Assembly: GCF_001545095.1 (NCBI RefSeq)
Contig: NZ_CP013213.1
Location: 1,740,001 to 1,772,000 of the forward strand
Reading direction: 5' to 3'
Origin: Erysipelothrix larvae
GTDB lineage: Bacteria; Bacillota_I; Bacilli_A; Erysipelotrichales; Erysipelotrichaceae
Length of the DNA stretch: 32,000 bases
Below the pieces are notes generated by a model. That model was not told where the DNA came from, did not search any database, and was given only the letters and a program-made list of their open reading frames with translations. Each line of letters opens with the position of its first letter. Positions within the stretch are counted from its first letter, which is position 1. Made by a program: the position numbers and the translations under genes. Positions 4,799-28,158 of this stretch are shown one piece after another.

Positions 4799-5628
4799 AT
4801 ACCCTCCTCTTAGCATATCTCTATATGTAAAATGAAATGCGAGCCTAATTATTGTCTGTACAAATATTACTGAAAATACCTATAGTTTTACAAACTAAGC
4901 AAAAGATATATCTACGCTAATTCTAACCAAATCTTGTAAGTAGCAAATTCATAAAATATAAACTCATAAATTATTAAACCGTTTTTAGAGTGTATGCTTC
5001 GTGTAATTGAAAACTCATCTCTTGATAACAATCTGAAATTATACTAGCTTACTTTTATCAATCTTGAATTTATAACAAAGGATAAATTCAAAGCAAACAA
5101 TGCGATTACACCGATTCTGATGATTAGGATTACCGATTAGACTATCAGTAGTCATTAAATTCTCCATTCAAATTAAATTGCGAGAATTATAAAACAAATT
5201 GTACTCAATAATTATCCAGTTTGAAAATTCAACCTTGACTCTTCCCAACGATTTTTACCCTCCATCACAACATAAGCTAAGACTGCCCCACCAATCTTCA
5301 AAATAGTAACAACTCACTTATCAAAGACCAATTGCAGATAAATAATTGATTAAATCAGTAAAGATGTGTTCTGCAATCGTTTACATAAAGAATATACCAT
5401 GACTGAAATAATGTGTCAATATGATTTATTAATATATGAAACTATATTTCTTTATGTTGATTTTAAAATTCTTTATCAAAATTTATCTAAGATTAATCAA
5501 ACCCTATTAAGCATGATTTCTTGGATTGATGTCATCAATGATTGACCCTTGATTAATGTCTATTGATGATCGTTTTGACTTATAATCTCGACTTTACAAA
5601 TCACGCCGGATGACTCACATCTTCATAA

Positions 5629-5666
5629 ATAAAAAACTTCTCACACAGTAGATGTAATGAGAAGTT
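5629..5666 (-). terminator. Rho-independent terminator ending the EIIC / small membrane protein transcription unit
   Basis: 9-bp stem AACTTCTCA / TGAGAAGTT (5635-5643, 5658-5666). The A-run on the plus strand gives a U-run after the stem on the minus strand. Confidence 0.7.
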
Positions 5667-5798
5667 AAACTTAAGTCATGAAAAAGTTAAGTGCTATTTG
5701 AAGATACTTTTATACTTGAACAATTGATACTTTTGCATACTCAAAATGACTGAAGAATCAAGATGAGACATACAAAGATCATTGGATAGAGAACGATG

Positions 5799-6098
5799 TT
5801 AAATGAATACACCTTCAAAAACCCACACATAAGTTATTAATGCAGTGAGTGCAAACAGTAATATAAAGATCGTCCAAAATGATAGGTCCATTTTCTTACC
5901 TTTTTGCATTACCAACGTTGTATAGGGAACGATGAATGCAAACGGTATTGCAGTTACAATCACTTTTAACCAGTTGTACCCAATACCCATAGCATCCAGT
6001 AATAATGGAATCACTAAAGATCCAATCAAAGATACGCCCAGCACAATGAATGCTGTTTTGATTGTAAAATAGGGTAGTTTTTCGTTTTGTCTTAACAT
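5799..6098 (-). CDS. Small integral membrane protein (about 3 TM helices), unknown function, co-directional with the upstream EIIC
   Basis: 99-aa ORF with three clear hydrophobic segments, 70 nt downstream of the EIIC gene and upstream of a terminator. No family recognised. Confidence 0.5.
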   Translation of the reverse strand: MLRQNEKLPYFTIKTAFIVLGVSLIGSLVIPLLLDAMGIGYNWLKVIVTAIPFAFIVPYTTLVMQKGKKMDLSFWTIFILLFALTALITYVWVFEGVFI

Positions 6099-6167
6099 AT
6101 TGTTTCCTCCAAATAGATTGAGGCTTGCTAAATAGCAAGCCGTTTACTAACTTTTTTAATACCTAAA

Positions 6168-7454
6168 TTATTCGCCAGTTTCTTGTTTTACTAGACTGCG
6201 GTCATACATCTTAAAGAATGGGAAGTAAATCATTACTGATAGAACAATCAGAACGATGTTGAGTACAGCAGTTCTCCAATCTCCAGCTGATGCCAAGTAT
6301 ACACCGATAGGTCCAGGAAGTGTCCAAGGTGATATAATTGTTAAACGATCCACTAAGCGCATCGATGTCGCGACCCATGCAATCGTAGCATTGATCATCG
6401 GTGCTAAAATAAACGGAATAATAAGTGTTGGGTTTAATACAATTGGTGTACCAAAAATCAATGGTTCATTGATGTTGAATAATGCTGGTACAAATGCAGT
6501 TTTACCAAGTGATTTAGCATACGATGATTTCGCAAAGAATGCCATACAAATTGCGAGACCGATTGTAGCTCCTGAACCACCAATCCAGATAAACCATTGG
6601 AAGAATGGTTCAACAGCGATTGCTGGAAGTGCAGTACCTGCAGTACCTGCAGCTGCAGCAGCAACGTTTTTGTCAAGTAACACGTTCCAAATTGGACGCG
6701 CCGCAGAACCAACAACTGAAACACCATGAATACCAAATGCCCAGAAGAATGTAATTAAGAATACTTGTAGCAATACGCTTGGAAGTGAATCTGAAGCTTT
6801 AATTAATGGTGCTACTAGATTTCCAATAAATGCATGCCAGTTAAATCCAAGATAATAAGTAACAGTTCCCATCAGTACAACGATTACTGCAGCAGGTGTT
6901 AATGCTTCAAATGATCGTGCAACAGAAGGTGGCACTTCTTTAGGCATTGTAATCTTGAAATTTGAATTAAGAATGAGTCGTGCTATTTCAACAGCTAAGA
7001 TTGCTGTAACAATACCCACAAACATTCCGCCTCCACCAAGGTTCGCAACAGGAAGAACAAATCCAGAAACCCCTGCTTCTAGATCAGCAGCTACATTAAT
7101 TGGTGTAAATGTTAACAAGAATGCAGCTTCAGCTAAGATACCGCCAGTTAATGCATCCATTTCATAGGATTGAGCTAAACTATATCCAATACCAAATACT
7201 GAGTACAATGTCATTAACGCCATTGTCATACGGTAAGGAAGCACGATTTGTGCTGCATTATCCTTTAGAAATTGTGTGATACCCCATGATAATGGTAACG
7301 GTGGGTTGGCAACAATCATGAAGAAAGAACCAACAATAATTAATGGTAATGTCGCAACAATACCATCACGTACTGCACGCAAGTGTTTTTGTGCAGCTAA
7401 TTTATTCATAGGACCCGCAAGATGTTGATCCATGAATTGTATTAAGAAATCCAT
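6168..7454 (-). CDS. PTS lactose/cellobiose(chitobiose)-family EIIC permease (copy 1; no EIIB or EIIA in the same transcription unit)
   Basis: 428 aa and polytopic. The N-terminus (LAAQKHLRAVRDGIVATLPLIIVGSFF) and the NINEPLIFGTPIVLNP block are typical of CelB/ChbC-type EIIC. Confidence 0.9.
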   Translation of the reverse strand: MDFLIQFMDQHLAGPMNKLAAQKHLRAVRDGIVATLPLIIVGSFFMIVANPPLPLSWGITQFLKDNAAQIVLPYRMTMALMTLYSVFGIGYSLAQSYEMDALTGGILAEAAFLLTFTPINVAADLEAGVSGFVLPVANLGGGGMFVGIVTAILAVEIARLILNSNFKITMPKEVPPSVARSFEALTPAAVIVVLMGTVTYYLGFNWHAFIGNLVAPLIKASDSLPSVLLQVFLITFFWAFGIHGVSVVGSAARPIWNVLLDKNVAAAAAGTAGTALPAIAVEPFFQWFIWIGGSGATIGLAICMAFFAKSSYAKSLGKTAFVPALFNINEPLIFGTPIVLNPTLIIPFILAPMINATIAWVATSMRLVDRLTIISPWTLPGPIGVYLASAGDWRTAVLNIVLIVLSVMIYFPFFKMYDRSLVKQETGE

Positions 7455-7486
7455 AAGTATATCCCCTTTTCTGTCTTAACACCGTA

Positions 7487-7515
7487 AATATACCACATTA
7501 TTATTTTATAGTCAA
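7487..7515 (-). promoter_or_regulatory. Sigma-A-type promoter for EIIC copy 1
   Basis: On the minus strand this reads TTGACT - 17 nt - TATATT, with a TG at the extended -10 position (TGgTATATT). It lies about 35 nt upstream of the start codon at 7454. Confidence 0.5.
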
Positions 7516-7928
7516 AATATTATTTCATATTTTTAACAAAATTTATGATTAAATGTTTCGGAATAAATAATTACCTAAACCAAGAAAAAAAACGCTTACA
7601 TTTCTGCGTTTTCTCTTGACATTTAAGGGGTTTCACAGTTCTTTTTTTTTCTCCAATCATCAACTATACTAATGATTGCATTACATCCATGAGTTTTGAT
7701 GGTCTAACAGCTTCATAAGTTATCAATCATTTTTAATAACCTGTTTTCTTTTAAATTCACATGTTATGAATATTCTATTATGAAACACCTGTTATCTTCC
7801 ACTTTTTATACATCCAAACGGATTTTCAAGGTATTTTTGTGATGTTGCTATAGATGTTTGAGAACCTTGATCATAATGAAATTATTCGATTAAATTGAAT
7901 TATGATTTAATAAATAGCAAGCGAATAA

Positions 7929-7950
7929 CGATGGCCTCTCAGGACCATCG
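7929..7950 (-). terminator. Possible terminator hairpin downstream of the M81 peptidase gene
   Basis: CGATGGCC..GGACCATCG imperfect stem (one mismatch, one G-U pair) about 60 nt after the stop at 8012. The trailing T-tract on the minus strand is weak. Confidence 0.3.
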
Positions 7951-8011
7951 CTACACATTTTCATATAGAGAAGCATACAACTTCCATAGAATTTTTGTAT
8001 AAAATTGTATC

Positions 8012-9475
8012 TTATTTAATGTAAATAAGTTCTTCTACATCATCCATTGGCCACATTGGTCTGTGGATGCGTTTGAATGGAATACGTTCTGAACGTTGGA
8101 TTGTTGGTCCATCAGTCAATGCCATCACATGATATGCGGTTTCTGGAATCAAATCTGTATCTAGATATCCCATCTTGACCACAACGATCTCATAATCATG
8201 AAATTCCAACCCTGCTTTATGGAATTGAGACATTTGCCCATATTGAATGTTTCGATTCATGATAAGCACATCCAAATTTGTCCCTTCAACATTAACCGTA
8301 TAGGTTGGTCCTACGACGTGTTTACCATTACCACCATACATACCTTCACCAATTTTCACAAGAGTTCCTTTGATGGATACGGGTTGTGATTCAGGGGTTT
8401 CCCCATTCCCAAGATCAAAGGATACGGGTTGTCCTTCAAGGGTGCCTTCAAGTGCACTGTGTACAGCTTTATCATGAATTCCAGCTACTAACACATGTTT
8501 ATCTTTAAGATCTGCCTTCAACAACTCTCTTAAAACAACCGTATTATGTCCAGCACCCCCTGCGCCACAATTATCCCCTGAGTCGGTAATCACTGCGGTC
8601 TTGCCATCAAAATTAATGGCCATTTGAACGGATGCATCGGGTTCATCATAGTTTCCTGAGAATTTAAACTCATGACGGTGGTCCCATGCATATTGAGAGA
8701 CTTGTTGGGCAACAAAGTCGCAATATTCATGGTCTTTTTCTGTGTTTGGTACTACAATGACCGCTGCCCCCAACTTGTCATCATCATGACGAATGTAACC
8801 GACGTTATAACAGATTGAGAAAACACGTGAGTCTTCTTCAAATTGATCCATCAGTTGATTGATACTACGCATTGGCTCTTTGGCAGATACACTGCGTTCG
8901 CCTCCGACCATGATGGGTAGTTTTTTTATGATTGGTGTCATTGGGCGGCGGTTTTTCATTAAGTCAACCAATTTTTCAGCTACAAGTTTCTTAGTCTCTA
9001 TATGATCAATATGTGGGGATTCACGGTAACAGCGAACAATGTTGGTATACTTTGTAAAGTCCTCACTGAGGTTTCCGTGGGGATCCATAGATACCGCAAT
9101 CGGTAGGTATTTCCCGACTGCATTTCGAATCCGTTTGATAATATAATGTTCACCGGATATTTCTTCAAGTCCTACAACACCACTGGCACCATGTAGATGT
9201 AAGTAAATGCCATCAAAGGTTCCCATGTGAGTGTTGATATCGTTGATGATGCGGTCTGCAATCTCAACATAAGCTTCCTTTTTTACCATGCCATTTGGGG
9301 GTAAGCTTGCGAATTGGGATGGGATAATCTCAATCCCTGCTTCTTCAAATACTTCTCTTACATATAGAGCGTCTATGCATTCATCCCCTCTCAACAATAA
9401 AAATTCATCCAAGCCTACAGTATGTGATATATGTTCATTACATTCTGCGGATACGTGTGCTACTAATACTTTCAT
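8012..9475 (-). CDS. M81-family (MlrC-like, DUF1485 + MlrC_C) metallopeptidase
   Basis: N-terminus MKVLVAHVSAECNEH, plus YLHLHGASGV, SMDPHGNLS and ITDSGDNCGAGGAGHNT blocks, match my recollection of MlrC/microcystinase-C-like proteins. The ATG at 9475 is preferred (AAAGGAGGA 5 nt upstream) over the ORF-track start at 9511. Confidence 0.75.
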   Translation of the reverse strand: MKVLVAHVSAECNEHISHTVGLDEFLLLRGDECIDALYVREVFEEAGIEIIPSQFASLPPNGMVKKEAYVEIADRIINDINTHMGTFDGIYLHLHGASGVVGLEEISGEHYIIKRIRNAVGKYLPIAVSMDPHGNLSEDFTKYTNIVRCYRESPHIDHIETKKLVAEKLVDLMKNRRPMTPIIKKLPIMVGGERSVSAKEPMRSINQLMDQFEEDSRVFSICYNVGYIRHDDDKLGAAVIVVPNTEKDHEYCDFVAQQVSQYAWDHRHEFKFSGNYDEPDASVQMAINFDGKTAVITDSGDNCGAGGAGHNTVVLRELLKADLKDKHVLVAGIHDKAVHSALEGTLEGQPVSFDLGNGETPESQPVSIKGTLVKIGEGMYGGNGKHVVGPTYTVNVEGTNLDVLIMNRNIQYGQMSQFHKAGLEFHDYEIVVVKMGYLDTDLIPETAYHVMALTDGPTIQRSERIPFKRIHRPMWPMDDVEELIYIK

Positions 9476-9572
9476 TGTTTTCCTCCTTTTAATTCCATTA
9501 AGAATTGACACCTAAATTATAAAGAAAATACCCCTGTTTATTCAGTATTTAAAACCCTAAATGAAATTACAG

Positions 9573-9581
9573 TTAGGAAAT
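9573..9581. promoter_or_regulatory. Copy of the recurrent TTAGGAAAT motif (reads ATTTCCTAA in gene orientation) between cutC and the M81 peptidase gene
   Basis: Exact 9-mer. A TATAAT (minus strand, 9516-9521) lies between it and the M81 start, so an internal promoter is possible. Confidence 0.35.
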
Positions 9582-9592
9582 ATGGGTGTTTT

Positions 9593-10330
9593 TTAATCCT
9601 TGAATGCGTCAAGAGTCGCCCTTAGTTTTGAAGCGTCAACCCCTTCATAGTCCCCCAGATCACTGTATCGATATGTTACAAAATCCCCTTGTGTTGTGGG
9701 ATCACTAAACCACCCTTTAAAGGAACCGTGCAGTTGAGAGATCCCTGTTTGTTCAATCAAACCACGGGCATTGGATGCATTCACACCCGCTCCAATACAG
9801 AACTCTATGGCATCTGAAAAACGGTCTTTTAGAGCTTTGAGTGTCGCAATGCCTTCAGGGGCACTTGCTTTTAAGCCACTGGTTAAGATTCGATCAACAC
9901 CGCATTCAATTAACCCTTCACAGGCTTCAAAAGAATCTTTGACACAGTCAAAAGCACGGTGAAAGATGGCTTCTTTTTGATATCTGTGACATAGATTCAC
10001 AAAACGTTTCGTGGTGTTTTTATCAATGGTAGCATCTTCATTTAGAAAGCCAAACACCAAGCCATCAGCGCCATGATCTAAGCAGGTCACAGCATCCAAA
10101 TACATTGTTTCAATCTCGGTTTCTGTATAGTGAAACCCGCCTGCACGAACACGAATCATCGTGAGGATTGGGAGTGTGGTCTGTTTCTTTGCGTTCACAA
10201 GCGTTCCTACGGTTGGTGTTAACCCTCCTAAGTGTAACGCACTGTTAAGTTCAATGCGATGTGCATGGCATTGTGTTGCGATTATGCAGTCTTCTACAGA
10301 GCCTGCACAAACTTCAATTAAATGTTTCAT
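9593..10330 (-). CDS. cutC: CutC-family TIM-barrel protein (annotated copper homeostasis protein; true function uncertain)
   Basis: N-terminus IEVCAGSVEDCIIATQCHAHRIELNSALHLGGLTPTVG is the characteristic CutC signature. 245 aa. SD sequence AAGGAGA upstream. Confidence 0.85.
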   Translation of the reverse strand: MKHLIEVCAGSVEDCIIATQCHAHRIELNSALHLGGLTPTVGTLVNAKKQTTLPILTMIRVRAGGFHYTETEIETMYLDAVTCLDHGADGLVFGFLNEDATIDKNTTKRFVNLCHRYQKEAIFHRAFDCVKDSFEACEGLIECGVDRILTSGLKASAPEGIATLKALKDRFSDAIEFCIGAGVNASNARGLIEQTGISQLHGSFKGWFSDPTTQGDFVTYRYSDLGDYEGVDASKLRATLDAFKD

Positions 10331-10341
10331 AGTTGGTCTCC

Positions 10342-11736
10342 TTATTGTGGTGTAATCATTGATTCGGGTCTAAGTGCTTTATCCAGTTCTTCGTGTGTCA
10401 TGAGTCCATGCTCTACAACTACTGTTCTTAAAGACTTGTTTTCTTTCAAGGCTTGTTTTGTAATTTCGGATACTTTTGAGTATCCCAGATACTTGACAAG
10501 TGCGGTTGCCATTGCAAGTGAGTGCTCAACGTAATCATGCACCCGTTCTTTATTGACAGTGAGGTTGTCGATGGCATGAACGCGCAAGGTTCGACAGGCT
10601 TCTTTTAAGATCTCAAAAGACTCAAAGAGATTATAGAAGAGTACGGGTCCAAATACATTGAGTTCCATTTGACCACTTTCTGTAGCCATCATGATGGTTT
10701 GATTGTTTCCAATGACTTGGAAGCATACTTGATTCACAACTTCTGGTATCACAGGGTTCACTTTTCCTGGCATGATGGAACTTCCGGGTTGGCGATCAGG
10801 GAGGTTAATCTCATTGAATCCAACCTTCGGTCCCGATGCCATCATGCGAATGTCATTACATACCCGTGATAGTCCAATTGCAAAGGTATTAAGCGAGCCA
10901 TGAACATAAGCAAAGCTGTCTACGTGTTTGGTGGCATCCACAAGATCATCCGCACTGACAAACGGGCGACCACTGAATTTAGAAAGGTTTGTGACTGCGA
11001 ATTCACGATACCCTCGGATGGAATTAATACCCGTTCCTACAGCGGTTGCGCCAAGATTAATGACTTGAAGTTCTGTTAAAGCATTTTGAAGACGCTTCAT
11101 ATCGCGTTGAATCACTGAGACATAAGAATGAAAGACTTGACCCATTGTAATAAGGACGGCGTCTTGTAGATGTGTGCGCCCCACCTTGATCACATCACCA
11201 TACTCTTTCGCTTTCACTTCAAATGCTTGAGATAAAAGGTCCATCTCCTGAAGTAATAATACCCCTAGATTAATGGCGGTGAGCTTACCTGCGGTTGGAA
11301 TGATATCATTGGTGGATTGAGCACGATTTACGTGGTCATTAGGATGAATGTAATCATAGACTCCAATGGGTTTGTTCAGGATTTGAGCTGCACGATTCGC
11401 GATGACTTCATTGACATTCATATTCATGGACGTGCCTGCACCACCTTGAATTGCATCCGTAATAAAGGCTTCTTTATGTTTCCCTTCAATGATTTCATCA
11501 CACGCTTGCATAATGGCATCACAGCGATCCTTTGATAAGTCAGTGACTTGATAATTCGCGAGTGCGCAGGCCTTTTTTACCTTTGCAAGTGACAGGTACA
11601 TCATATCATTGACACGACGTCCTGTGATTCTAAAATTCTCCATTGCACGAACCGTTTGTGCACCATATAGTGCATCAATGGGTACCTGTACTTCACCTAA
11701 AGAATCCTTTTCGATTCGAATTGTTTGATCATGCAT
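10342..11736 (-). CDS. aspA: Aspartate ammonia-lyase (aspartase)
   Basis: Fumarase/aspartase superfamily with the signature GSSIMPGKVNPVIPE. The VIPE variant is aspartase-type, whereas fumC in this window has PTQIE. The N-terminus IRIEKDSLGEVQVP is AspA-like. Confidence 0.88.
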   Translation of the reverse strand: MHDQTIRIEKDSLGEVQVPIDALYGAQTVRAMENFRITGRRVNDMMYLSLAKVKKACALANYQVTDLSKDRCDAIMQACDEIIEGKHKEAFITDAIQGGAGTSMNMNVNEVIANRAAQILNKPIGVYDYIHPNDHVNRAQSTNDIIPTAGKLTAINLGVLLLQEMDLLSQAFEVKAKEYGDVIKVGRTHLQDAVLITMGQVFHSYVSVIQRDMKRLQNALTELQVINLGATAVGTGINSIRGYREFAVTNLSKFSGRPFVSADDLVDATKHVDSFAYVHGSLNTFAIGLSRVCNDIRMMASGPKVGFNEINLPDRQPGSSIMPGKVNPVIPEVVNQVCFQVIGNNQTIMMATESGQMELNVFGPVLFYNLFESFEILKEACRTLRVHAIDNLTVNKERVHDYVEHSLAMATALVKYLGYSKVSEITKQALKENKSLRTVVVEHGLMTHEELDKALRPESMITPQ

Positions 11737-11862
11737 AGATTTTCTTTAAACCCCTATCTTTCTTTATGATTTAAACATTTGATTTGTGTGATTCAGTCAT
11801 TCACACACTTTAAATTTATTTTATCACACACTATCATTGTTTGGTTTTATTCCTGTAAGTTT

Positions 11863-14148
11863 TTAATCTATAAATATTTGGCGTATCCAGGGATTGTTGA
11901 TGGCATTCACCTGATATCCACTGGTACTCCATAAAGTAATACGATTTTTTATAATTGCGATAAAGGGCAGGACATTCGCATCTAGATGATTGGCTTGTAT
12001 GATTTGGTGCAGCCAATGTTTGTCCCATTGTGTATGTACCTGAGTATTTGAAATCACACCCTTAAGTTTTTGAATCATCTCATGATTTGGATTACCTATA
12101 TTATAAAGATGAAGTGAAAAAGATTGTCCATTCAAAACATCGCTTATTTCAATGAGTTCGTTGATAATGTGCTGGGTTGGTTCTTCATCAACCTGCCCAA
12201 AACAAAGAATTGAAAGTGTGTTATCCCAAGATTCATCCAAGTATAATCGCATATCAGTATTCTCAAATGCTCCATTGTATGAACGTTTTGGAACACTTAC
12301 CTCAAGATTTAAATCCTGTGTGAGTGATATGGGAACAACCTTACCAATCACGGACCCATCTGGATAGCGTTTCGAAAGAGTCAACACATAATCCCCTTGT
12401 TCATAATAGGAAATGGGCTGATCTAAATCAAAGTTTCCCGATTCACTGATCAAAGAAAACGGAGATAATGCAATGTTAAGGAGTTTATCTTGTGTTTCTA
12501 TGCTTAGTTCATAGCTCAAATGACCACCAAGAGGTTCAAATTTACCTCGATTATAAACTTCCAAAGTCTGACTATGTCGATTTAAACGCGTTGGATACCC
12601 CTTTACACGACATATCATCGTAATCAGATGGAGCTTATCATTGAGTGTCCCTCGCTTTCTTTTCAACATCACTTCAAAGGGTAAAATCGTGTCTTCCATG
12701 AAATAATCACATGGACCACTATCCCAATTCATGATTTCTTGATAGATTTGCTGAGGGGTAGAGAAAGGAAACTGAACCAATGCTTCTGTATTAAAAGTAA
12801 GGTCTTCATGGCTAACACGTGGATTCAACAGTGCACTTTGGAAAATATCTGATGGCACTGACTTCTTCCACTTTTGGACAACCTTTGCATAATCAATCAG
12901 TACCTGCGCATCAAAGTCAAAGAGATCTTTTTGAGTCAAACAAGCTTTCACTTGATTTGCATATGGTTCACCCAATGCTTCTTTTAAGCGTTGATGTGCT
13001 TTTGTATTGACTATTTCTGGTTTTATGGCTTCCATACGCTTATGATATTGGTTCAAGTTTTGATTCTTGATAGTTTTGTACAGAGTTTGTTTTTTTTCAT
13101 CAGAAGTATCATAAGGAATTGTTTCCTTGAAAGGTACTTGAATCAAGTTGAATCCTATGTCACTTAACAAGTCTGTTTCATTGATTTCAACGACCATATC
13201 TCGTGCTGCTATTTCTTTAAGATATATCTTGTGATTGGTCTGTACTCTTACAAAACAATCACCATATCCGATTTCAACCGTTGCTTTATTATCTTGTACC
13301 TTTAACGTGGCGACATTTCTTAAGATTCCATAATTGAGTATTGCGATTGAGATTTCGTGACAATCCTTTAAACCAACATAAATCGTGAGATTACGTGTCT
13401 TTGTGTAATGGTGGGTGACATTAATTTTGGTATGAATCCCGCGTTTTTCTACAATTGCTTCGTCTTGAGTAAGATTTGAAAATTGATTGGTTCTTAGGAT
13501 GAGCGAACGCGATGCACTGGGTGTAAACCACGCATTGTTGAACTCTTTGGCACTGTCACCTGCACTAAGGTATTGCCATGCCCCATTTACATAAACTTCA
13601 ACCCATGCATGTCGATCATCACAATGTGACCACCACGGCGCATAGATTTGTCGTGCAGGAATTCCCACCGATCGATACGCATGCACCAAGAACGTTGACT
13701 TTTCGCCACACCTACCAATCCCACTCTTTAATGTCAAAGATGGGTTCTGGGTTCTCGCATCCGTACTTCGATATTGCACCATACTAATCATCCAAGTATT
13801 AATCGCAAAAATAGTGTCAACACAGTCATCACAACAGATCGGTTTTAACAACTCATAAAATGTGTTTCGAGATGCGTCAAGTGTTTCATTATTGATGCGT
13901 GGTTGGACTACATAGTCTAAGTATATTTGTTCAGGTACTTCTTGAGCATATTTCGACTTTATAAAGTAACTGTGCTGTACAAAATCATCCAACTGATCTT
14001 GTGTAATTCCTAAGTCATTATCCATCAAATACGCAAGTATGTATTTCGCGTACAATACTTCTTGGTCGCAATAAGAATCGAAGGACAATGCCTTATATTC
14101 ATGTTTTCGTTTCTCGTAATCAGCGTTAATTTGATGAACTATCTCCAT
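11863..14148 (-). CDS. Large cytoplasmic transglutaminase-core (PNGase-like) cysteine hydrolase domain protein
   Basis: Block GIGRCGEKSTFLVHAYRSVGIPARQIY...DRHAWVEVYVNGAWQYLSAGD gives a Cys-His-Asp arrangement: Cys codon 13708-13710, His 13609-13611, Asp 13555-13557. No signal peptide. The ATG at 14148 is preferred (GAGGTG 6 nt upstream) over the GTG at 14157. Confidence 0.8.
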   Translation of the reverse strand: MEIVHQINADYEKRKHEYKALSFDSYCDQEVLYAKYILAYLMDNDLGITQDQLDDFVQHSYFIKSKYAQEVPEQIYLDYVVQPRINNETLDASRNTFYELLKPICCDDCVDTIFAINTWMISMVQYRSTDARTQNPSLTLKSGIGRCGEKSTFLVHAYRSVGIPARQIYAPWWSHCDDRHAWVEVYVNGAWQYLSAGDSAKEFNNAWFTPSASRSLILRTNQFSNLTQDEAIVEKRGIHTKINVTHHYTKTRNLTIYVGLKDCHEISIAILNYGILRNVATLKVQDNKATVEIGYGDCFVRVQTNHKIYLKEIAARDMVVEINETDLLSDIGFNLIQVPFKETIPYDTSDEKKQTLYKTIKNQNLNQYHKRMEAIKPEIVNTKAHQRLKEALGEPYANQVKACLTQKDLFDFDAQVLIDYAKVVQKWKKSVPSDIFQSALLNPRVSHEDLTFNTEALVQFPFSTPQQIYQEIMNWDSGPCDYFMEDTILPFEVMLKRKRGTLNDKLHLITMICRVKGYPTRLNRHSQTLEVYNRGKFEPLGGHLSYELSIETQDKLLNIALSPFSLISESGNFDLDQPISYYEQGDYVLTLSKRYPDGSVIGKVVPISLTQDLNLEVSVPKRSYNGAFENTDMRLYLDESWDNTLSILCFGQVDEEPTQHIINELIEISDVLNGQSFSLHLYNIGNPNHEMIQKLKGVISNTQVHTQWDKHWLHQIIQANHLDANVLPFIAIIKNRITLWSTSGYQVNAINNPWIRQIFID

Positions 14149-14213
14149 GTGAATCACCTCTACGAAAATTATACGATAATCTTCTCTTAAAAAAAGGGAT
14201 TAATTCAGCACGT

Positions 14214-14256
14214 ACTTAGGAAATGAATACCTTAAACTCAATAAAAAATTTCCTAA
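14214..14256. promoter_or_regulatory. Inverted pair of the ATTTCCTAA motif in the divergent promoter region between the transglutaminase-like operon and the PRD regulator
   Basis: TTAGGAAAT at 14216-14224 and ATTTCCTAA at 14248-14256 are perfect reverse complements, 32 bp centre to centre. Each copy points toward its flanking gene. TATAAT boxes lie at 14291-14296 (+) and 14168-14173 (-). Confidence 0.45.
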
Positions 14257-14329
14257 ATGCTTCGCACAAACATAACTAAAAGTATTCCAATATAATGATA
14301 AAATTAAAGTGTGTGGAAAGGGGGATATA

Positions 14330-16249
14330 ATGAATCGACGACAAAAACAAATTCTATCGATTCTTACTGCCTCAAAAGACTGGGTTCGTGGTGTCGAATT
14401 ATCAAAACGTTTAGACGTTACCGATCGTACAATTCGTTCCGACATTGAAAAAATAAACAGTGAGTTGGGAAATGTAGTGGAATCAAATACACGTAAAGGT
14501 TATCGACTATCACAGACCAGTGATCTTGGTAATGTATTAGTTGAACAAAAAAATCAAATCCCACAGACACCAGAAGAGCGCACGTTTTATATCATCAAAA
14601 AACTACTCTTTTTAAATCGTCCCATTCGTATTTTTGACTTACAAGAAGAATTATTTGTAAGTGATTATACAATTGAAACGGACCTAAAAAGAATTCGGAA
14701 ATTGATTAAACCTTATAAGGGAATACGACTGGTGAGGACACATAACAATATTTTCTTCGAGAGTAATGAATATACAAAGAGGAAATTATATCGAGACCTG
14801 ATTAACAGTGAGATTCATGGTAATTTTATGAACCTTAACAAAATTGCTTCTCAACATGACAAATTCAACTTAATCAGCGTTACCAAGCTTCTCCAGGAAG
14901 TGATGGAGTCTTATGATTACCAAATGAGAGATTCTACATTACCGCTAATTGTTCTACATATTGGAATTATGACGGAACGGATGATATTAGGTCATAACTT
15001 GCCACCAGATCTGTCAAAACTAGAACGCGTTGATACTCAATCGGAAGAATATAAGATTGCAGTGGAGTTTTTAGAACGACTTTCTAAAATCTTGCCAATT
15101 CGATACAACGATTGGGAAATTTATGAAGTCGTAGCACTTTTGTTAGGTTATAAAAACCCAACCAACACTGTATCACATGTTCAAATCAAGGGAGAAATAT
15201 ATTCGGTAACACAATGTATTCAAGATATTATTACATACCTCGATATACACTTTGACATAGATTTAAAGAATGACGATGATTTCAAATCGGGCATTCACCT
15301 TCACTTACAGTCGCTTTTTTACCGAATAGAGAATGGTATCGAGATTCAGAACACTTACCTACAAGAAGTTAAGATGTCCTATCCCATGATTTTTGAAATG
15401 GCAATTCATGTAGCACGACTCATCAGCGATTACTTTGGTATCGTGATATCAGAAGCAGAAACGGGATTCATCGCCATACATTTAGGCACTGCTTATGAGC
15501 GTAATATTGCCAGCTCAAAATATCGTGCTATGCTAATTACATCCAGTAATCAAGCATTCTCCAAAGTAACAAAAGAAAAATTAGATGGACGCTTTAATGA
15601 TAGAATGGACATCGTTTCAATTTCGAGTTATTTTGAAATAAAAGAAATCGAAGAAAGCAACGTCGACATATTAATTTGTGTGACTCAAATTGAACACTCA
15701 CTCGATATCCCTACCGTTAAGATTTCAATGTTCGTCAATACAGAAGATGAAGCAAATGTCTTCAATCTTTTGAATCAACTTGATAAAAGACGATCTAAGC
15801 TTCAATTTGCGCATTGCTTATCAGGTCTCATTGAAGATCAATTCTTTTATACAAACGAATCCTGGCAAACACCTGAAGAAGTCATTGAATCAATGTCAAA
15901 TAATCTCTTTACACATCAAAGCTTTCTTGAGTCGTTTAAAGAGTCTGTATTAGAACGCGAGAAATATGCAGCGACATCATTTGAAATAGGACTTGCGACA
16001 CCGCATCCGATTGTCTTTGAAAGCTCAACCTCGCACATATCAATCGCGACTTTAGAGAAACCTGTTAAATGGGGAAGTTATGAGGTTCACCTTGTAATTC
16101 TCTTAGCAATCTCTCACCATGACCGTGAGACATTAGAAGCCTTCTTTAGTTGGCTCAGCAATGCAATATCAAACCAGTCAAAGTTTGATAAACTGATTAA
16201 CTCGAAAAATAGAGATGAGTTCGTTTACTGGATGTTGGAGGATATGTAA
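14330..16249 (+). CDS. PRD-domain transcriptional regulator (HTH + 2 PRD + EIIB-like + EIIA-like; MtlR/LicR/ManR architecture)
   Basis: N-terminal winged-helix segment QKQILSILTASKDWVRGVELSKRLDVTDRTIRSDIEKIN. Size and central/C-terminal layout are typical of PTS-controlled activators. The ATG at 14330 has GGAAAGGGGG upstream; the ORF-track start at 14309 is a GTG without an SD. Confidence 0.85.
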   Translation: MNRRQKQILSILTASKDWVRGVELSKRLDVTDRTIRSDIEKINSELGNVVESNTRKGYRLSQTSDLGNVLVEQKNQIPQTPEERTFYIIKKLLFLNRPIRIFDLQEELFVSDYTIETDLKRIRKLIKPYKGIRLVRTHNNIFFESNEYTKRKLYRDLINSEIHGNFMNLNKIASQHDKFNLISVTKLLQEVMESYDYQMRDSTLPLIVLHIGIMTERMILGHNLPPDLSKLERVDTQSEEYKIAVEFLERLSKILPIRYNDWEIYEVVALLLGYKNPTNTVSHVQIKGEIYSVTQCIQDIITYLDIHFDIDLKNDDDFKSGIHLHLQSLFYRIENGIEIQNTYLQEVKMSYPMIFEMAIHVARLISDYFGIVISEAETGFIAIHLGTAYERNIASSKYRAMLITSSNQAFSKVTKEKLDGRFNDRMDIVSISSYFEIKEIEESNVDILICVTQIEHSLDIPTVKISMFVNTEDEANVFNLLNQLDKRRSKLQFAHCLSGLIEDQFFYTNESWQTPEEVIESMSNNLFTHQSFLESFKESVLEREKYAATSFEIGLATPHPIVFESSTSHISIATLEKPVKWGSYEVHLVILLAISHHDRETLEAFFSWLSNAISNQSKFDKLINSKNRDEFVYWMLEDM

Positions 16250-16590
16250 TGACACTCGAAAAGATACAAGAAATTGGAATGATGATGATTTCTAAAATTG
16301 GACTTGCGAAATCTAACTATGTGGAATCGCTCAGCGAATCACGCGAAGGGAACTTTGAACGCGCAAAACAGCTGATTCAAGAAGCAGACCTGCTAAAGAT
16401 TGAAGCACACACAGAACACTTTGGATTGATTCAGTTGGAAGCTTCAGGTAACCAGCTCCCATTCAGTCTCATTCTTATGCATGCTGAAGATCAACTCTTA
16501 ACCTGTGAGGTGTTTCATAAAATAGCACTTGAACACATCACATTATATACACGGATTAAGAAACTTGAGGATGTCATCATTAAGGACTAA
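16249..16590 (+). CDS. PTS lactose/cellobiose-family EIIA (divergent active-site context)
   Basis: 113-aa helical protein with IEAHTEHFGLIQLEASG...LILMHAEDQLLT, corresponding to the AHxxQT...HAQDHLM blocks. Its start overlaps the regulator stop (TAATG). Confidence 0.75.
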   Translation: MTLEKIQEIGMMMISKIGLAKSNYVESLSESREGNFERAKQLIQEADLLKIEAHTEHFGLIQLEASGNQLPFSLILMHAEDQLLTCEVFHKIALEHITLYTRIKKLEDVIIKD

Positions 16591-16601
16591 AGTCTACAAG
16601 A

Positions 16602-16628
16602 AAAGCCGTTTGATACGGCTTTTTCTTT
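16602..16628 (+). terminator. Rho-independent terminator after regulator-EIIA
   Basis: AAAGCCGT ttgat ACGGCTTT stem-loop followed by TTTCTTT. Confidence 0.8.
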
Positions 16629-16663
16629 AGCACCATAAACTTATGGGAGGAACTATATAAAGC

Positions 16664-16690
16664 AAAAAACAGCAAACGCTGCTTTTTGTT
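16664..16690 (-). terminator. Weak A-run/short stem/T-run element downstream of the GrdB-like gene
   Basis: AAAAAACAGCaaacGCTGCTTTTT has only a 4-bp GC core, extendable by A-U pairs. It lies between convergent units. Confidence 0.3.
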
Positions 16691-16701
16691 TGAGGTAAAC
16701 A

Positions 16702-17223
16702 TCAATATAGGTACATGCTTAACGCTTCAAGTGAATGATTTGACCCAACATATTTCGCAATTTGAACCATATGATGAAGGGACTCATTCAGTCCCACTCC
16801 ACCTTTCTTTGGCATTTTCACCATCACAATCTTATCTTTATATTCTTCAATAGTTTCGTGATTCTTTTCAGGAGCACAGCATACAATAGCTCTACACTCT
16901 GAGTTTTTATTAATATACTCTGCTAAGTGGCATGCGGTTTGTGTGTAACGATCATAATCATAAGTAGGCCCGCAGATTACAACTTCTGCTTTAACCTTTT
17001 GAATCAAATTCACGACCTTTTCACAACATTCTTGTTTATTGTCTTCAAAGAAATCAGCACCTGCATACATGGTAGCAACTAAAGCTAATCCTTCTTGTTT
17101 GAAATATTTTTCAAACATTGCGTATGAACCGATCCCCCCTTTTTCAACACTAAGCGGTACATCGGTATGTTCTTTTCCACCTTTACCAGCTTGAATTTGA
17201 TCAAAGAATAATAGTGTTCTCAC
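16702..17223 (-). CDS. Short homolog of the N-terminal domain of glycine/sarcosine/betaine reductase component B (GrdB/PrdB family), last gene of a PTS operon
   Basis: Three blocks resemble GrdB as I recall it: LLFFDQIQAGKGGKEHT (GrdB VHYINQFFAGIGGEEKA), VVICGPTYDYDRYTQTACH (GrdB IAGPAFNAGRYGVACG) and IVMVKMPKKGGVGLNESL. GTG start at 17223 with AAGGGGGG 7 nt upstream. TGA stop. Confidence 0.6.
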   Translation of the reverse strand: MRTLLFFDQIQAGKGGKEHTDVPLSVEKGGIGSYAMFEKYFKQEGLALVATMYAGADFFEDNKQECCEKVVNLIQKVKAEVVICGPTYDYDRYTQTACHLAEYINKNSECRAIVCCAPEKNHETIEEYKDKIVMVKMPKKGGVGLNESLHHMVQIAKYVGSNHSLEALSMYLY

Positions 17224-17240
17224 TATAAGTCCCCCCTTTG

Positions 17241-18596
17241 TTAATCAAAGGAAATATCTGAAAGCGAGATATCATCAAGTTCATCTGTTTCGCTTTCCAA
17301 TCCTTTAGTTTCTTCCTCTAGATATTGTTTATCTAACACTTTGAAGAACGGATAATACACCAGAATACCTAATATTAACAGGAATATTTGGAAAAACGCT
17401 GCTTTAAAGCTTCCGGTCGCAAGCCATCCAGAGAAGAAGATTGGCATCGTCCATGGAATTGAAATCCCAAATGTCCGAGGAATCAACCCTATTGCAGTAG
17501 CAATATATCCAAGTGAAATATTCATAACAGGAACTAATATAAACGGTACTAGAATGATTGGGTTTAATACTACTGGAAGCCCGAAGATAACCATTTCATT
17601 AACTCCAAAGATTCCTGGAACAATCGATAACCGACCAAGTTGTTTTAGACGTTGTGACTTCGCAAAGAATAGCATACAGATAACCAAGGATAACGTTGAT
17701 CCTCCACCACCATAATTTCCAAAGAAATCAGAGAATGACGCAGTATAGATATTTGGAAGGTCTGCTTTCATTCCAAACTCTAGGAAAACGCTGAGGTTCT
17801 CTTGAGTTAATACTGTGGTGATTGGACTAAATACAGTATTGGTTACTGCAGGTCCATTGATTCCAAAGAACCAAAACAATGTAGAGAAGAATTGATATAA
17901 TACAGGGAATATTGGCAAGCGACCTAGACCCATTAATGGTGCTTGTAGAACTTCCATAATCATATCGTGGGCAAAGTTATATGATGTTAAGGATACGCCA
18001 ATTCTTAGTAAGAAAAAGAATGTCATTGAGAAGAATGCTGGAATTAATGCACTGAATGACATCGCAACCATTGGGGGTACACCAGCAGGCATTTTAATGA
18101 CCCACCCTTTTTTCTCAATTTTATTAAAGATCAGTACGCTCACAATCGCACAAATCATTCCTAAGAACAATCCACTCGATCCTAAATTTGAATAAGCGAA
18201 ACCAGAGAATGATTTCCCTGCATCGTTGACAAAGTTTGGATGACTTTGTGGGGTTAGAATTAGGAAACTTACAAGTGCAACAATTCCACCGACCATTCCT
18301 TCACTACCAAGCTCACGTGCATAAACATATCCAATACAAATGACATTGATCATTGCGAGTAAACTAAAGGTTGCTCCTGACACTGCCCCTAAGTACGTGG
18401 ACCAGTTTTCACCAAAGATACTTGCCATGAACTCTGAATACCCATTGATTGGGAAATTTTGGATGAGCAAGAAAACAGATGCTCCGATGATTAATGGGGT
18501 TGAAATCAAGAACCCATCACGAATAGCAATTAACACCTTATTGTTATTGAGTTTCTCGGCGATTGGTCCAAGAACATTTTCCAATTTATCTAACAT
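17241..18596 (-). CDS. PTS lactose/cellobiose-family EIIC permease (copy 2)
   Basis: 451 aa and polytopic. LIAIRDGFLISTPLIIGASVFLL and GVNEMVIFGLPVVLNP blocks. Acidic C-terminal tail. Starts 3 nt after the EIIB stop. Confidence 0.9.
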   Translation of the reverse strand: MLDKLENVLGPIAEKLNNNKVLIAIRDGFLISTPLIIGASVFLLIQNFPINGYSEFMASIFGENWSTYLGAVSGATFSLLAMINVICIGYVYARELGSEGMVGGIVALVSFLILTPQSHPNFVNDAGKSFSGFAYSNLGSSGLFLGMICAIVSVLIFNKIEKKGWVIKMPAGVPPMVAMSFSALIPAFFSMTFFFLLRIGVSLTSYNFAHDMIMEVLQAPLMGLGRLPIFPVLYQFFSTLFWFFGINGPAVTNTVFSPITTVLTQENLSVFLEFGMKADLPNIYTASFSDFFGNYGGGGSTLSLVICMLFFAKSQRLKQLGRLSIVPGIFGVNEMVIFGLPVVLNPIILVPFILVPVMNISLGYIATAIGLIPRTFGISIPWTMPIFFSGWLATGSFKAAFFQIFLLILGILVYYPFFKVLDKQYLEEETKGLESETDELDDISLSDISFD

Positions 18597-18599
18597 AAT

Positions 18600-18923
18600 T
18601 TAACCCTTCCCCTTATTTTTGATGAGTGATATCGCAAATTTAAGAACACGCTCACCATTAACTTTTCCATAATCCTCTAAATTGATAACCTCAACGGGTG
18701 TGTTTGGTTCATACTTAGCTTTTGTTTCTTTTTCTAAGTATTTCACTTGTGGTCCCAGTAAAATGACATCTGGATTAAACTGTGACACAATATCTTCCAT
18801 CTTTGAATCCGAAAAAGCTTTTACCTCAATTGGTAAATTATACTGGGTTGCGACTTCTTGCATTTTGCTTGCAAGCAAACTCGTCGACATCCCCGCATTA
18901 CAGAATAAGTACACTCTTTTCAT
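18600..18923 (-). CDS. PTS lactose/cellobiose-family EIIB
   Basis: MKRVYLFCNAGMSTSLLASKM carries the active-site Cys in the CxxGxSTS loop. 107 aa. SD sequence AGGGAGA. Confidence 0.9.
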   Translation of the reverse strand: MKRVYLFCNAGMSTSLLASKMQEVATQYNLPIEVKAFSDSKMEDIVSQFNPDVILLGPQVKYLEKETKAKYEPNTPVEVINLEDYGKVNGERVLKFAISLIKNKGKG

Positions 18924-18950
18924 GAATGTTCTCCCTTCGTCCTTATATTA

Positions 18951-19009
18951 ATATCCTAACAAATGAACCGAATCTTTGATTATCGTAAATTTCCTATCAG
19001 TTAGGAATA
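18951..19009. promoter_or_regulatory. Cluster of three ATTTCCTAA-like motif copies upstream of the EIIB-EIIC-GrdB-like operon
   Basis: ATATCCTAA at 18951-18959. ATTTCCTAT at 18989-18997 and TTAGGAATA at 19001-19009 form the inverted repeat TTCCTA-tcagt-TAGGAA. The cluster lies 28-86 bp upstream of the start at 18923. Confidence 0.4.
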
Positions 19010-19269
19010 CAAAAGTGACAGACTTTTGTGTAGATTCAAAAAAGAAACCCAAATCTTCCCATTTCTTCTCGGGATAAATCTCGGTTTCTTCTTATATTTG
19101 GATATTAAACTTTAAAGGTTTTTTCTCTCAACACTATTTCTTGGGAAAAGTTATTTATCGATTATTGGTTCATCTTTGTTAAGTAAGCCCAAACTTTCAT
19201 GAATCGAATTATATGATTTGAAGACCATGTTCTCTTGATACACAAGTCTTTAGCATATCAAAAGAAATT

Positions 19270-19311
19270 GAAACAAGATATCCTTTAAGTGTAAGCGATA
19301 TTTCTTGTTTC
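19270..19311 (-). terminator. Candidate terminator hairpin for the malic enzyme-fumC operon
   Basis: GAAACAAGATATC ... GATAtTTCTTGTTTC is a 13-bp stem with one bulge. On the minus strand it is followed by AATTTCTTTT. It lies about 260 nt after the fumC stop. Confidence 0.35.
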
Positions 19312-19479
19312 TTTAAAATCATCTCGTTTGAGTCTTATTATTTTCTTGATTTCCTCTTAACTAAAACCGTAATAATCTTTGCTCTTATTCTTAAAATGAA
19401 ACAGATGAAACAGCAAACATGATCCGATTAAAAGAGCCGTTATCATTGGCACCAATTATCAAGGTAATTCACTATTTTT

Positions 19480-19497
19480 ATTAGGACACTTCCTAAT
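19480..19497. promoter_or_regulatory. 7-4-7 palindrome ATTAGGA-cact-TCCTAAT built from the same TAGGA core
   Basis: Perfect inverted repeat about 80 nt downstream of the fumC stop, with no U-tract on the minus strand, so it is unlikely to be a terminator. Confidence 0.3.
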
Positions 19498-19572
19498 CGT
19501 GATGATCTTAATCATCTCTGACATAGGTATCTTTCAAGCATCTTAGCATGCAGAACAAAGCATCAATGCCTC

Positions 19573-25527: not shown

Positions 25528-25780
25528 TGTCTTCCCCTTTCACATTCAAAATGCATTTATTCTGTTCTCCTAAAACAGAGTTTTACCTAATACTTTATTT
25601 TGTATCCTTTCAATTGAGAGTCTTCTCAATTATTACTTTAGAATTTTTTCGCGCTGATTTAAAGGTTTCTTGCGATATATTATTATAAAAAGTTTTATAC
25701 CAAAGATAATACCAACAAAAAATAGATCAAATCAGTGTTATAGGTAGCCATATATTATCTGACCACCCCTTCACAAACAC

Positions 25781-25806
25781 AAAAACATACGAGTAAAACG
25801 TATGCT
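25781..25806 (-). terminator. Rho-independent terminator after EIIA of the GH1 operon
   Basis: On the minus strand: CATACG ttttact CGTATG followed by TTTTTGTGTTTG. Confidence 0.6.
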
Positions 25807-25813
25807 TTTATCA

Positions 25814-26161
25814 TTATTTTACGGATATCTCAAACAATTCAATAATTGCTAAAGTTAGTTTAATTTCGCTCATGATAGTCATAAGCGTATCCTGTGCGTG
25901 TGTAAATAATAGACTGTTTCCATGATAAACTCCAGCCATTTCACTTTGAATAATATCCGTTTGTGCTTTATGAGCAAGGACAATATCTTCCTGAGCAGCA
26001 TCGAGCAACTCGTACGATTCAGCAAACTTTTTTATTTTCGCTTTGTCAATTGCAGTTTGAGACTTCAACCTGGCATCTCCTGCATGTAATATGATTTTCA
26101 TAGCTACTTCAACTAGCTCGCTGTTCTCATGTAAATTTTCTTCTAGGCTGTCGTTTGTCAT
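25814..26161 (-). CDS. PTS lactose/cellobiose-family EIIA (canonical)
   Basis: LAHKAQTDIIQSEMAG and LLFTHAQDTLMT blocks. 115 aa. Confidence 0.88.
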   Translation of the reverse strand: MTNDSLEENLHENSELVEVAMKIILHAGDARLKSQTAIDKAKIKKFAESYELLDAAQEDIVLAHKAQTDIIQSEMAGVYHGNSLLFTHAQDTLMTIMSEIKLTLAIIELFEISVK

Positions 26162-26239
26162 GTTAACCTCTTTCTATTTTTTATCAATGCTTTAAAATCT
26201 ACAAATTAATCTGTATCAAAATATATACTTGTTAGTTTT

Positions 26240-26557: not shown

Positions 26558-26619
26558 GATAAACATTCTCCTTTTTATTTGTTAATATGTGTGAGGCTCT
26601 TATTCAATATTTAGCAATA

Positions 26620-26661: not shown

Positions 26662-26670
26662 CAAATCTAG

Positions 26671-28158
<1,488 letters not shown>

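Follow-up and report, generated by a model that had tools for sequence, protein, structure and literature searches.

A stretch of 32,000 nucleotides (nt) from Erysipelothrix larvae (assembly GCF_001545095.1, contig NZ_CP013213.1, positions 1,740,001–1,772,000), here called the window, contains genes for a multidomain protein with a transglutaminase (TGase) fold, an aspartate ammonia-lyase (AspA), a CutC-family protein and an M81 peptidase, together with genes of the sugar phosphotransferase system (PTS). What is this combination for? A preliminary description of the same DNA proposed that the locus imports and dismantles a conjugate of a sugar with asparagine (Asn) or aspartate (Asp), and did not recognize the combination as a described pathway. 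Is this a new catabolic system, or a variant of one that is already known? And, if a bond between sugar and Asn is cut, which of the encoded proteins is the best candidate for cutting it? All coordinates given below are window positions.

N-acetylglucosaminyl-asparagine (GlcNAc-Asn) is what remains once endoglycosidases have stripped N-glycans. We consider it probable that the system of the window handles sugar–Asn compounds or N-glycopeptide remnants. A narrower reading, that the locus serves PTS-dependent catabolism of GlcNAc-Asn and short N-glycopeptide remnants and is of the same type as the ega locus of Enterococcus faecalis, has about an even chance of being right. Import and breakdown of a sugar–Asn conjugate is still the best reading, on grounds other than those first offered: a match to ega-type PTS genes, the N-glycan context of the TGase-fold family, and an operon in another Erysipelothrix genome that includes a glycosylasparaginase gene. 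Catabolism of GlcNAc-Asn through a PTS is already known (E. faecalis ega, 2023; Lacticaseibacillus casei alf-2, 2020). What is undescribed is the set of TGase-fold protein, CutC, AspA and M81, and the claim of novelty holds for that set.

All of the genes in the preliminary description are present with the positions and strands given to them, including the divergent PRD regulator and EIIA. The genes of the proposed system are these.

8012–9475, minus strand: M81 (MlrC-like) metallopeptidase, predicted to be cytoplasmic (PF07364 and PF07171)
9593–10330, minus strand: CutC-family TIM-barrel protein (PF03932, 178.2 bits against a Pfam threshold of 23.3)
10342–11736, minus strand: AspA, aspartate ammonia-lyase (NF008909, 638 bits against a cut-off of 510)
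11863–14148, minus strand: TGase-fold multidomain protein of 761 amino acids (PF01841, 73.6 bits against a Pfam threshold of 23)
14309–16249, plus strand: PRD transcriptional activator of the LicR/MtlR type (PF08279, PF05043, PF00874 twice and PF00359; HTH-Mga-PRD-PRD-EIIA2)
16249–16590, plus strand: EIIA of the Lac/Cel family (PF02255, 85 bits)
16702–17223, minus strand: GrdB-related protein without selenocysteine (NF041545, 220.9 bits against a cut-off of 175)
17241–18596, minus strand: EIIC of the Lac/Cel family, likely GlcNAc-Asn permease (TIGR00410, 389 bits)
18600–18923, minus strand: EIIB of the Lac/Cel family, ega-type (PF02302)

The TGase-fold protein is 100% identical to E. larvae AOC36_08095, and a GAGGTG ribosome-binding site precedes its ATG at 14148. 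As first described, the genes for four cytoplasmic enzymes run head to tail on the minus strand; signal-like N-termini are absent from the TGase-fold protein, AspA, CutC and M81, and no terminator-like sites were found between the four genes.

The transporter module and its relatives

Combret et al. (2023, Res Microbiol 175:104169) reportedly described the ega (glycosylasparaginase) locus of E. faecalis with its PTS for GlcNAc-L-Asn, and the title of that paper is said to state that GlcNAc-Asn use by E. faecalis matters in infection. The ega locus is reported to be made up of EgaG, Lac/Cel EIIB and EIIC and a putative oxidoreductase, with a GntR regulator and a dipeptidase transcribed separately (PMC11549559). 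A further paper from the same group reports the GlcNAc-L-Asn PTS of E. faecalis, with CelA1 as its EIIA (PMC11976118).

The window has the same core arrangement, in which genes for a Lac/Cel EIIB and EIIC are followed directly by a GrdB-related gene without selenocysteine. This order is identical in Streptococcus cuniculi and Candidatus Enterococcus murrayae. The EIIC at 17241–18596 is 61% identical to that of S. cuniculi and 52% to that of Ca. Enterococcus murrayae, and has 64, 56 and 53% identity to the EIICs of three further loci of our comparison, L001, L091 and L167. For the EIIB at 18600–18923 the values are 70% (S. cuniculi) and 52% (Ca. Enterococcus murrayae), and for the GrdB-like protein at 16702–17223 they are 51% and 37%. 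The Ca. Enterococcus murrayae locus (L174) has a GntR-M20 pair separate from Asparaginase_2-IIB-EIIC-GrdB-like-M42-M42-FGase, in agreement with the published ega order.

Judged by homology and gene order, the transporter of this system is the IIB-EIIC-GrdB-like module at 16702–18923, which lies outside the region covered by the preliminary description. That description had chosen another EIIC, at 6168–7454. It is not the orthologue of the system's permease: its identity to ega-type EIICs is 32–35%, against 52–64% for the EIIC at 17241–18596. Because of this higher identity and the synteny, the latter is taken as the permease.

The E. faecalis locus, as described, resembles the window in having genes for a Lac/Cel EIIB and EIIC with a GrdB-related "oxidoreductase" next in line; both systems also use a Lac/Cel EIIA and peptidases of the cytoplasm. 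Unlike the ega locus, the window has neither EgaG nor the M20 dipeptidase, carries a PRD activator in place of the GntR regulator, has its EIIA within the locus, and adds the TGase-fold protein, CutC, AspA and M81. Glycosylasparaginase genes are present in L001, L167, S. cuniculi (L173) and L174; in the 32-kb window no match to Asparaginase_2 (PF01112) was found by phmmer or tblastn. The peptidase of the window is an M81 protein, unlike the M20 dipeptidase of ega and the M42 peptidases of its relatives.

The relatives show how the remaining genes of the window are combined elsewhere. L001, from another Erysipelothrix genome, has a single operon of IIB-EIIC-GrdB-like-M42-M42-Asparaginase_2-M20-AspA-CutC-TGase. 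The glycosylasparaginase of this operon, annotated as N4-(beta-N-acetylglucosaminyl)-L-asparaginase, shows 97% identity to the E. inopinata enzyme and 90% to the E. rhusiopathiae enzyme; the AspA of the operon is 77% identical to the AspA of the window. In S. cuniculi an AspA-like gene and a PRD regulator gene come before IIB-EIIC-GrdB-like-M42-M42-Asparaginase_2-M20-DUF7916. Three metagenomic loci contain parts of the set: L167 has genes for a PRD regulator, IIB, EIIC, a GrdB-like protein, M20, Asparaginase_2, IIA and CutC and no TGase gene; L091 has CutC, a PRD regulator, IIA, M81, IIB, EIIC and GrdB-like genes; and L092 has AspA and CutC. The EIIA of the window is 43% identical to the IIA of L091, and its PRD regulator is also 43% identical to the L091 regulator. 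In L009 a PRD regulator with 56% identity to that of the window is divergent from two tandem TGase paralogues of 760 and 777 amino acids (6461–11086), and an M81 gene (a fragment) lies 2.4 kb downstream of these.

The operon slot that holds CutC in L167 and L001 is occupied by a DUF7916 protein in S. cuniculi (L173, 14771–15670) and by an FGase-family (PF05013) protein in Ca. Enterococcus murrayae (L174, 10857–11657). From its sequence, the DUF7916 protein looks like a TIM barrel. The two families may be alternative solutions for the step that CutC serves in L167 and L001.

A GrdB-like gene directly follows the ega-type EIIC gene in seven independent loci (the window, L001, L091, L167, L171, L173 and L174). 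Its coordinates are as follows in three of the relatives.

L001, 3110–3628: GrdB-like gene
L173, 10001–10522: GrdB-like gene
L174, 8001–8522: GrdB-like gene

A database protein of 457 amino acids, P0196, carries GRDB and Asparaginase_2 domains together. In E. faecalis OG1RF the GrdB-like gene is reported to be a pseudogene. The comparison brings the GrdB-related protein to the fore as an invariable and puzzling companion of the GlcNAc-Asn PTS.

The alf-2 operon of L. casei acts on fucosyl-alpha-1,6-GlcNAc-Asn and encodes AlfH, PepV, AsnA2, AsdA, AlfC and SugK (PMC6960285). Its logic is shared by the window: a transporter, a peptidase (PepV), an amidase for Asn-GlcNAc (AsnA2) and an aspartate-consuming enzyme (AsdA). 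The window has a PTS in place of the major facilitator superfamily permease AlfH, so that no kinase is needed, an aspartase in place of the aspartate 4-decarboxylase, and M81 in place of the M20 peptidase PepV. It lacks GH29, a glycoside hydrolase (GH) family, and its amidase is only a candidate. Counterparts of AlfC and SugK, namely GH29 enzymes and ROK kinases, occur elsewhere in loci of the TGase-fold family.

The TGase-fold family and CutC

Full-length homologues of the TGase-fold protein are 760–880 amino acids long. A word search gave 952 matches, and an exhaustive search gave 656 clusters at 50% identity (E <= 1e-30). Relatives are present in at least 596 GTDB species, among Clostridia, Bacteroidota, Coriobacteriia and Paenibacillus. 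The genomic context was counted in 80 species loci of the family, with 10-kb flanks.

A CutC gene was present in 46 of the 80 loci, mostly directly adjacent and on the same strand, and one metagenomic protein is a true CutC::TGase fusion. On this evidence of gene neighbourhood, CutC is a conserved partner of the TGase-fold family. The preliminary description had asked whether the TGase-aspA-cutC-M81 quartet is conserved across genomes; only the TGase–CutC pair is so broadly. Erysipelothrix-like loci are essentially the only ones with AspA, M81 and Lac/Cel PTS genes; elsewhere an M17, M42 or M20 enzyme is the peptidase.

By neighbour clustering, GH29 was found in 26 loci, GH92 in 10, and GH125, GH18 and GH2 in six each, with at least one of these in 37 of the 80. 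When 112 operon mates (CutC excluded) were scanned against Pfam, the matches were GH29 alpha-L-fucosidase (19), GH92 (6), GH125 (6), GH18 (5) and GH20 (2), plus ABC sugar or peptide transporters. M17 aminopeptidases (12/80), DeoR regulators (9/80), NagB-like (6/80) and NagA-like (4/80) proteins and ROK kinases also occur. Operons such as L018 and L037 have the order solute-binding protein-permease-permease-CutC-TGase-GH29-M17, which provides all of the alf-2 functions but glycosylasparaginase. Asparaginase_2 was not found within 10 kb of the TGase gene in any of the 80 loci.

The GH29, GH92, GH125, GH20 and ROK families of the Streptococcus pneumoniae N-glycan locus (PMC5215778) also flank TGase–CutC pairs in Firmicutes and Bacteroidota. 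The window lacks those glycoside hydrolases, and PMC5215778 mentions neither a TGase-fold protein nor CutC. No genes for GH29, NagA, NagB, M20 or M42 were found in the 32-kb window. In Bacteroidota loci the TGase gene is beside GH92 and GH125 genes, with the CutC gene adjacent on the opposite strand, so that the two genes stay together there even with their products in separate compartments.

What is CutC itself? The protein of the window is a clear member of the family of E. coli, Shigella and human CutC proteins. Its profile matches human CUTC (PDB 3iwp) at 5.6e-88, and also 1twd, 2bdq and 4r9x, and it scores 149 bits against the E. coli equivalog model, below the cut-off of 311. Beyond its own structures there are weak matches (E = 0.02–1) to the C-terminal halves of phosphate-binding TIM barrels, these being hexulose-phosphate synthase, TIM, RPE, HisA and KDPG aldolase. 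What sets the present case apart is that the family is linked with a TGase-fold protein and with glyco-Asn loci. A role in copper homeostasis was rejected on the literature, since the copper phenotype of E. coli cutC has been reassigned to MicL, a small RNA encoded within cutC (PMC4102768). Our literature search found no paper that links CutC or TGase-like proteins to glycosylasparaginase, PNGase, GH29, GH92, GH125 or the catabolism of N-glycans or GlcNAc-Asn. CutC is not always clustered with such genes: in a metagenome scan centred on CutC, most close homologues were amid unrelated housekeeping genes (MurG, HAD hydrolase, restriction-modification), and the informative loci were L091, L092, L167 and L168 only.

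The candidate amidase and its rivals

In the route that we propose, EIIA (16249–16590) with EIIB and EIIC (17241–18923) would import a beta-N-glycoside and phosphorylate its sugar, as suggested by homology to the GlcNAc-L-Asn PTS of E. faecalis, and substrates would thus enter as 6-phospho derivatives. The M81 peptidase may trim flanking residues in the cytoplasm. Cys147 and His180 of the TGase-fold protein would then cleave the side-chain amide of Asn by chemistry like that of peptide:N-glycanase (PNGase), giving Asp or an Asp-peptide and a (phospho)glycosylamine. AspA would convert Asp to fumarate and ammonia, CutC may act on a sugar-derived product, and the PRD activator would control expression. 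Since there is no glycosylasparaginase in the window, the TGase-fold protein is the best candidate for the Asn–sugar amidase. That it performs this cleavage is a tentative assignment, with chances a little short of even.

An AlphaFold2 model of the 761-residue protein (pLDDT 88.5, pTM 0.90) has an N-terminal helical region and the TGase core at about residues 1–215. A beta-sandwich domain matches PDB 3e8v, a fragment of a Bacteroides fragilis "possible transglutaminase-family protein", at 5e-19, and the remaining parts are long helices, further beta domains and a C-terminal thioredoxin-like fold. In the last of these (residues 645–760, with matches to ResA/TlpA) an invariant E-P-T-x-H replaces CxxC. 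Other invariant residues outside the TGase core are K407, D408, D411, R444, E448, Y587 and R594. The thioredoxin-like domain and the invariant residues beyond the core point to a possible second functional site. For residues 465–540 a degenerate second TGase-like domain was suspected, an idea given up when BLASTP gave no similarity.

Is the core that of a PNGase? C147 and H180 are invariant in alignments of 39 and 89 sequences and align with the Cys and His of PNGase; the invariant pair argues for an active thiol enzyme. GRCGE is invariant in 89 of 89 members, HxDD(N/R)HAWVE is conserved, and the local motifs GRCGE, HxWxEVY and W..xACE are PNGase-like. The eukaryotic enzymes Png1/NGLY1 (EC 3.5.1.52; PDB 2f4m, 1x3w) likewise have a TGase-fold core with Cys and His and the motifs GRCGE, HxWxEVY and W....xCE, and both they and the window protein are cytoplasmic and linked to N-glycans. 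The preliminary description had read a complete Cys-His-Asp core here, of which the Cys and His stand and the Asp does not. The residue that it took as the catalytic Asp is D198, which aligns with the Glu of the PNGase motif D-x-C-E. The catalytic Asp of that motif and the catalytic Asp of the Cytophaga putative cysteine protease 3isr both align with another position, S195 in the window protein. The spacing from GRCGE to the His, first given as 33 residues, is 30 to His180.

The statement that the core is closer to PNGase than to generic bacterial TGase-like proteases was not borne out. Against PDB, a profile of the core alone matched 3isr at 1.3e-6, mouse PNGase at 1.4e-4, yeast PNGase at 2.8e-3 and TG3 at 0.09. 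With the full-length query, mouse PNGase was the only TGase-fold match, at a non-significant E of 0.1–0.2. The top structural matches from Foldseek were 3isr, TglA, TG2 and FXIII, with PNGase absent from the top 50. The architecture, with beta-sandwich, helical and thioredoxin-like domains over 761 residues, is unrelated to that of Png1/NGLY1. Membership of the PNGases, examined by phmmer, by full-length and core profiles against PDB and by Foldseek, was rejected, since the catalytic Asp is missing and the core is not closer to PNGases than to other TGase-fold families; PNGase is kept as a possible mode of action.

Several observations weigh against GlcNAc-Asn catabolism with the TGase-fold protein as its amidase. 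At the canonical catalytic Asp position 88 of 89 members have Gly (motif GACEP) and the window protein has Ser, and the closest relatives of solved structure are generic putative cysteine proteases and not PNGase. In L001 a glycosylasparaginase and a TGase-fold protein are present together, which means that one does not simply stand in for the other. A glycosylasparaginase may be encoded elsewhere in the E. larvae genome, and its absence among the best 120 matches is suggestive only. In Bacteroidota (loci L030–L090) the TGase-fold members have signal or lipoprotein N-termini and CutC never does, so that one protein is exported, the other is cytoplasmic, and the pair need not share one molecule. 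For the transporter, homology was found to an Enterococcus locus of the published ega order and not to the E. faecalis proteins themselves.

Some of these points fit a different division of labour on the same class of substrates. The TGase-fold protein may be a cysteine peptidase or isopeptidase that trims glycopeptides or opens them, or an accessory protein that binds glycan or peptide, with the amide cut by a glycosylasparaginase encoded elsewhere or by CutC. Besides its protease-like structural relatives (3isr, both by profile and by Foldseek), the missing Asp and the co-occurrence in L001, this would suit L167, where Asparaginase_2 and CutC are found without a TGase-fold protein, and the extra domains with their own invariant residues (beta-sandwiches, the CxxC-less thioredoxin-like fold and the helical regions). 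The amidase step would then be missing from the loci of the family, given the count of none in 80 for Asparaginase_2, and dedicated peptidases (M17, M42, M20, M81) are already alongside; chemistry on side-chain amides is, moreover, a hallmark of the fold, as in TGases and PNGase. We regard this alternative as unlikely, while giving it real weight. It is less probable still that the Lac/Cel PTS imports some other beta-glycoside conjugate, such as chitobiosyl- or glucosyl-Asn derived from glycoproteins of fungi, insects or bacteria, a muropeptide-like sugar-peptide or glycated Asp or Asn, from which Asp would still be released. Two Lac/Cel EIICs that are 52% identical need not have the same specificity, the source of E. 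larvae is the gut of a beetle larva, and the enzyme set of M81, TGase and CutC is unlike that of ega, with no GH29, NagA or NagB gene in the window and a second, divergent EIIC nearby. Against such a substrate, the IIB-EIIC-GrdB-like genes keep close synteny with genes annotated as N4-(beta-GlcNAc)-L-asparaginase in Erysipelothrix, Streptococcus and Enterococcus, and the TGase-fold family co-occurs with enzymes for the N-glycan core and with NagA/NagB.

Could the gene order be mere coincidence? CutC would then serve copper homeostasis, AspA general amino-acid metabolism, the TGase-like protein would be an unrelated protease and the PTS genes would belong to ordinary beta-glucoside operons. The standard database name of CutC is indeed "copper homeostasis protein", and the housekeeping surroundings of CutC in most loci of the CutC-centred scan would be expected. 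This explanation is very improbable in view of the frequency of CutC beside the TGase gene across phyla, with one fusion, the recurrence of AspA-CutC-TGase with PTS genes in L001, and the reassignment of the E. coli copper phenotype to MicL. Catabolism of a sugar–Asn compound through an ega-type PTS is the reading that we retain.

Two of the enzymes were assigned to their families as follows. AspA scores 584.6 bits against the equivalog model TIGR00839, below its cut-off of 681.2, and its score exceeds those of fumarase models. The M81 protein has both of the domains of the microcystinase MlrC and is a distant member in a sugar-PTS context; at 80.8 bits against the cut-off of 999 of the MlrC model NF041767, it is placed as a member of the M81 family only. 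An M81 gene comes after the TGase genes in L009 too, and another is part of the PTS locus L091.

Regulation, neighbouring genes and wider meaning

The activator encoded at 14309–16249 has an N-terminal HTH and Mga region, two PRDs and a C-terminal EIIA(Mtl/Fru)-like domain, as in LicR/MtlR-type regulators. An inverted repeat, TAGGAA-N27-TTCCTA, lies at 14217–14255 in the intergenic region between the TGase and regulator genes, and a second, TTCCTA-N5-TAGGAA, lies at 18991–19007 upstream of IIB. Each form gave one match, with 0.05 expected by chance. TAGGAA/TTCCTA repeats were found at these two promoter regions only, and the two sites are not alike in spacing or orientation. The repeats may serve the PRD activator as operators, and having one at each promoter region hints weakly at co-regulation. 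Apart from one hairpin, promoter and terminator scans gave nothing above background, and no Rfam elements were found in 5000–20000. The remaining features are the following.

5799–6098, minus strand: small membrane protein of 99 amino acids with three hydrophobic segments, membership uncertain
6168–7454, minus strand: second Lac/Cel EIIC, system membership uncertain
16663–16688: terminator-like hairpin between the convergent EIIA and GrdB-like genes, an 11-bp stem followed by a T run
19573–22112, minus strand: class II fumarase-like gene (fumC_II, TIGR00979) and gene with malic enzyme domains

Domain and profile searches gave no family match for the 99-residue protein. The EIIC at 6168–7454 was set aside as transporter of the system on its low identity to ega-type EIICs and its own promoter-like site at 7515–7487; it is 557 nt from the M81 gene, and the TAGGAA repeat is absent upstream. 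The AT-rich intergenic region of 557 nt at 7455–8011 includes an imperfect hairpin, GCGATGGTCC...GGCCATCGT, which has no T tail and no Rfam match.

The fumarase-like and malic enzyme genes adjoin the PTS unit on its upstream side, an adjacency that L001 does not share. The best match of the fumarase-like gene is TIGR00979, at 557 bits and below the cut-off of 664.75 bits. With AspA and the malic enzyme it would provide, inside 14 kb, for the conversion of Asp through fumarate and malate to pyruvate. It is possible, from adjacency only, that these two genes are a downstream route that could take the carbon to pyruvate.

This region of the genome is PTS-rich. A separate Lac/Cel PTS operon at 23620–29388 encodes IIA, IIB, a GH1 phospho-beta-glucosidase, a divergent EIIC and its own PRD regulator, the last with 26% identity to the regulator at 14309. 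At 2417–4816 a protein of 799 amino acids has a GHL10 glycosyl-hydrolase-like domain and an internalin-K-type domain and may be a surface glycosidase.

What would the finding mean beyond E. larvae? The boldest reading is that the TGase-fold protein and CutC are a widespread and previously unrecognized bacterial two-step route for the junction of protein and glycan; to this we give a low probability. In this reading both steps would take place in the cytoplasm of Firmicutes, and in Bacteroidota they would be divided over periplasm and cytoplasm. An Asp-less Cys-His amidase would cut Asn-GlcNAc, and CutC would process the (phospho)glycosylamine or a GlcNAc derivative. The locus nevertheless suggests that bacteria of at least 596 species (656 clusters when grouped at 50% identity), with many Clostridia and Bacteroidota of the gut among them, treat this junction with a different enzyme. 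CutC, which occurs from bacteria to humans and is still annotated as "copper homeostasis", is here tied to a definite pathway, open to test with simple substrates. If the two-step route is true, this would be the first real biochemical function for CutC, including human CUTC alongside NGLY1.

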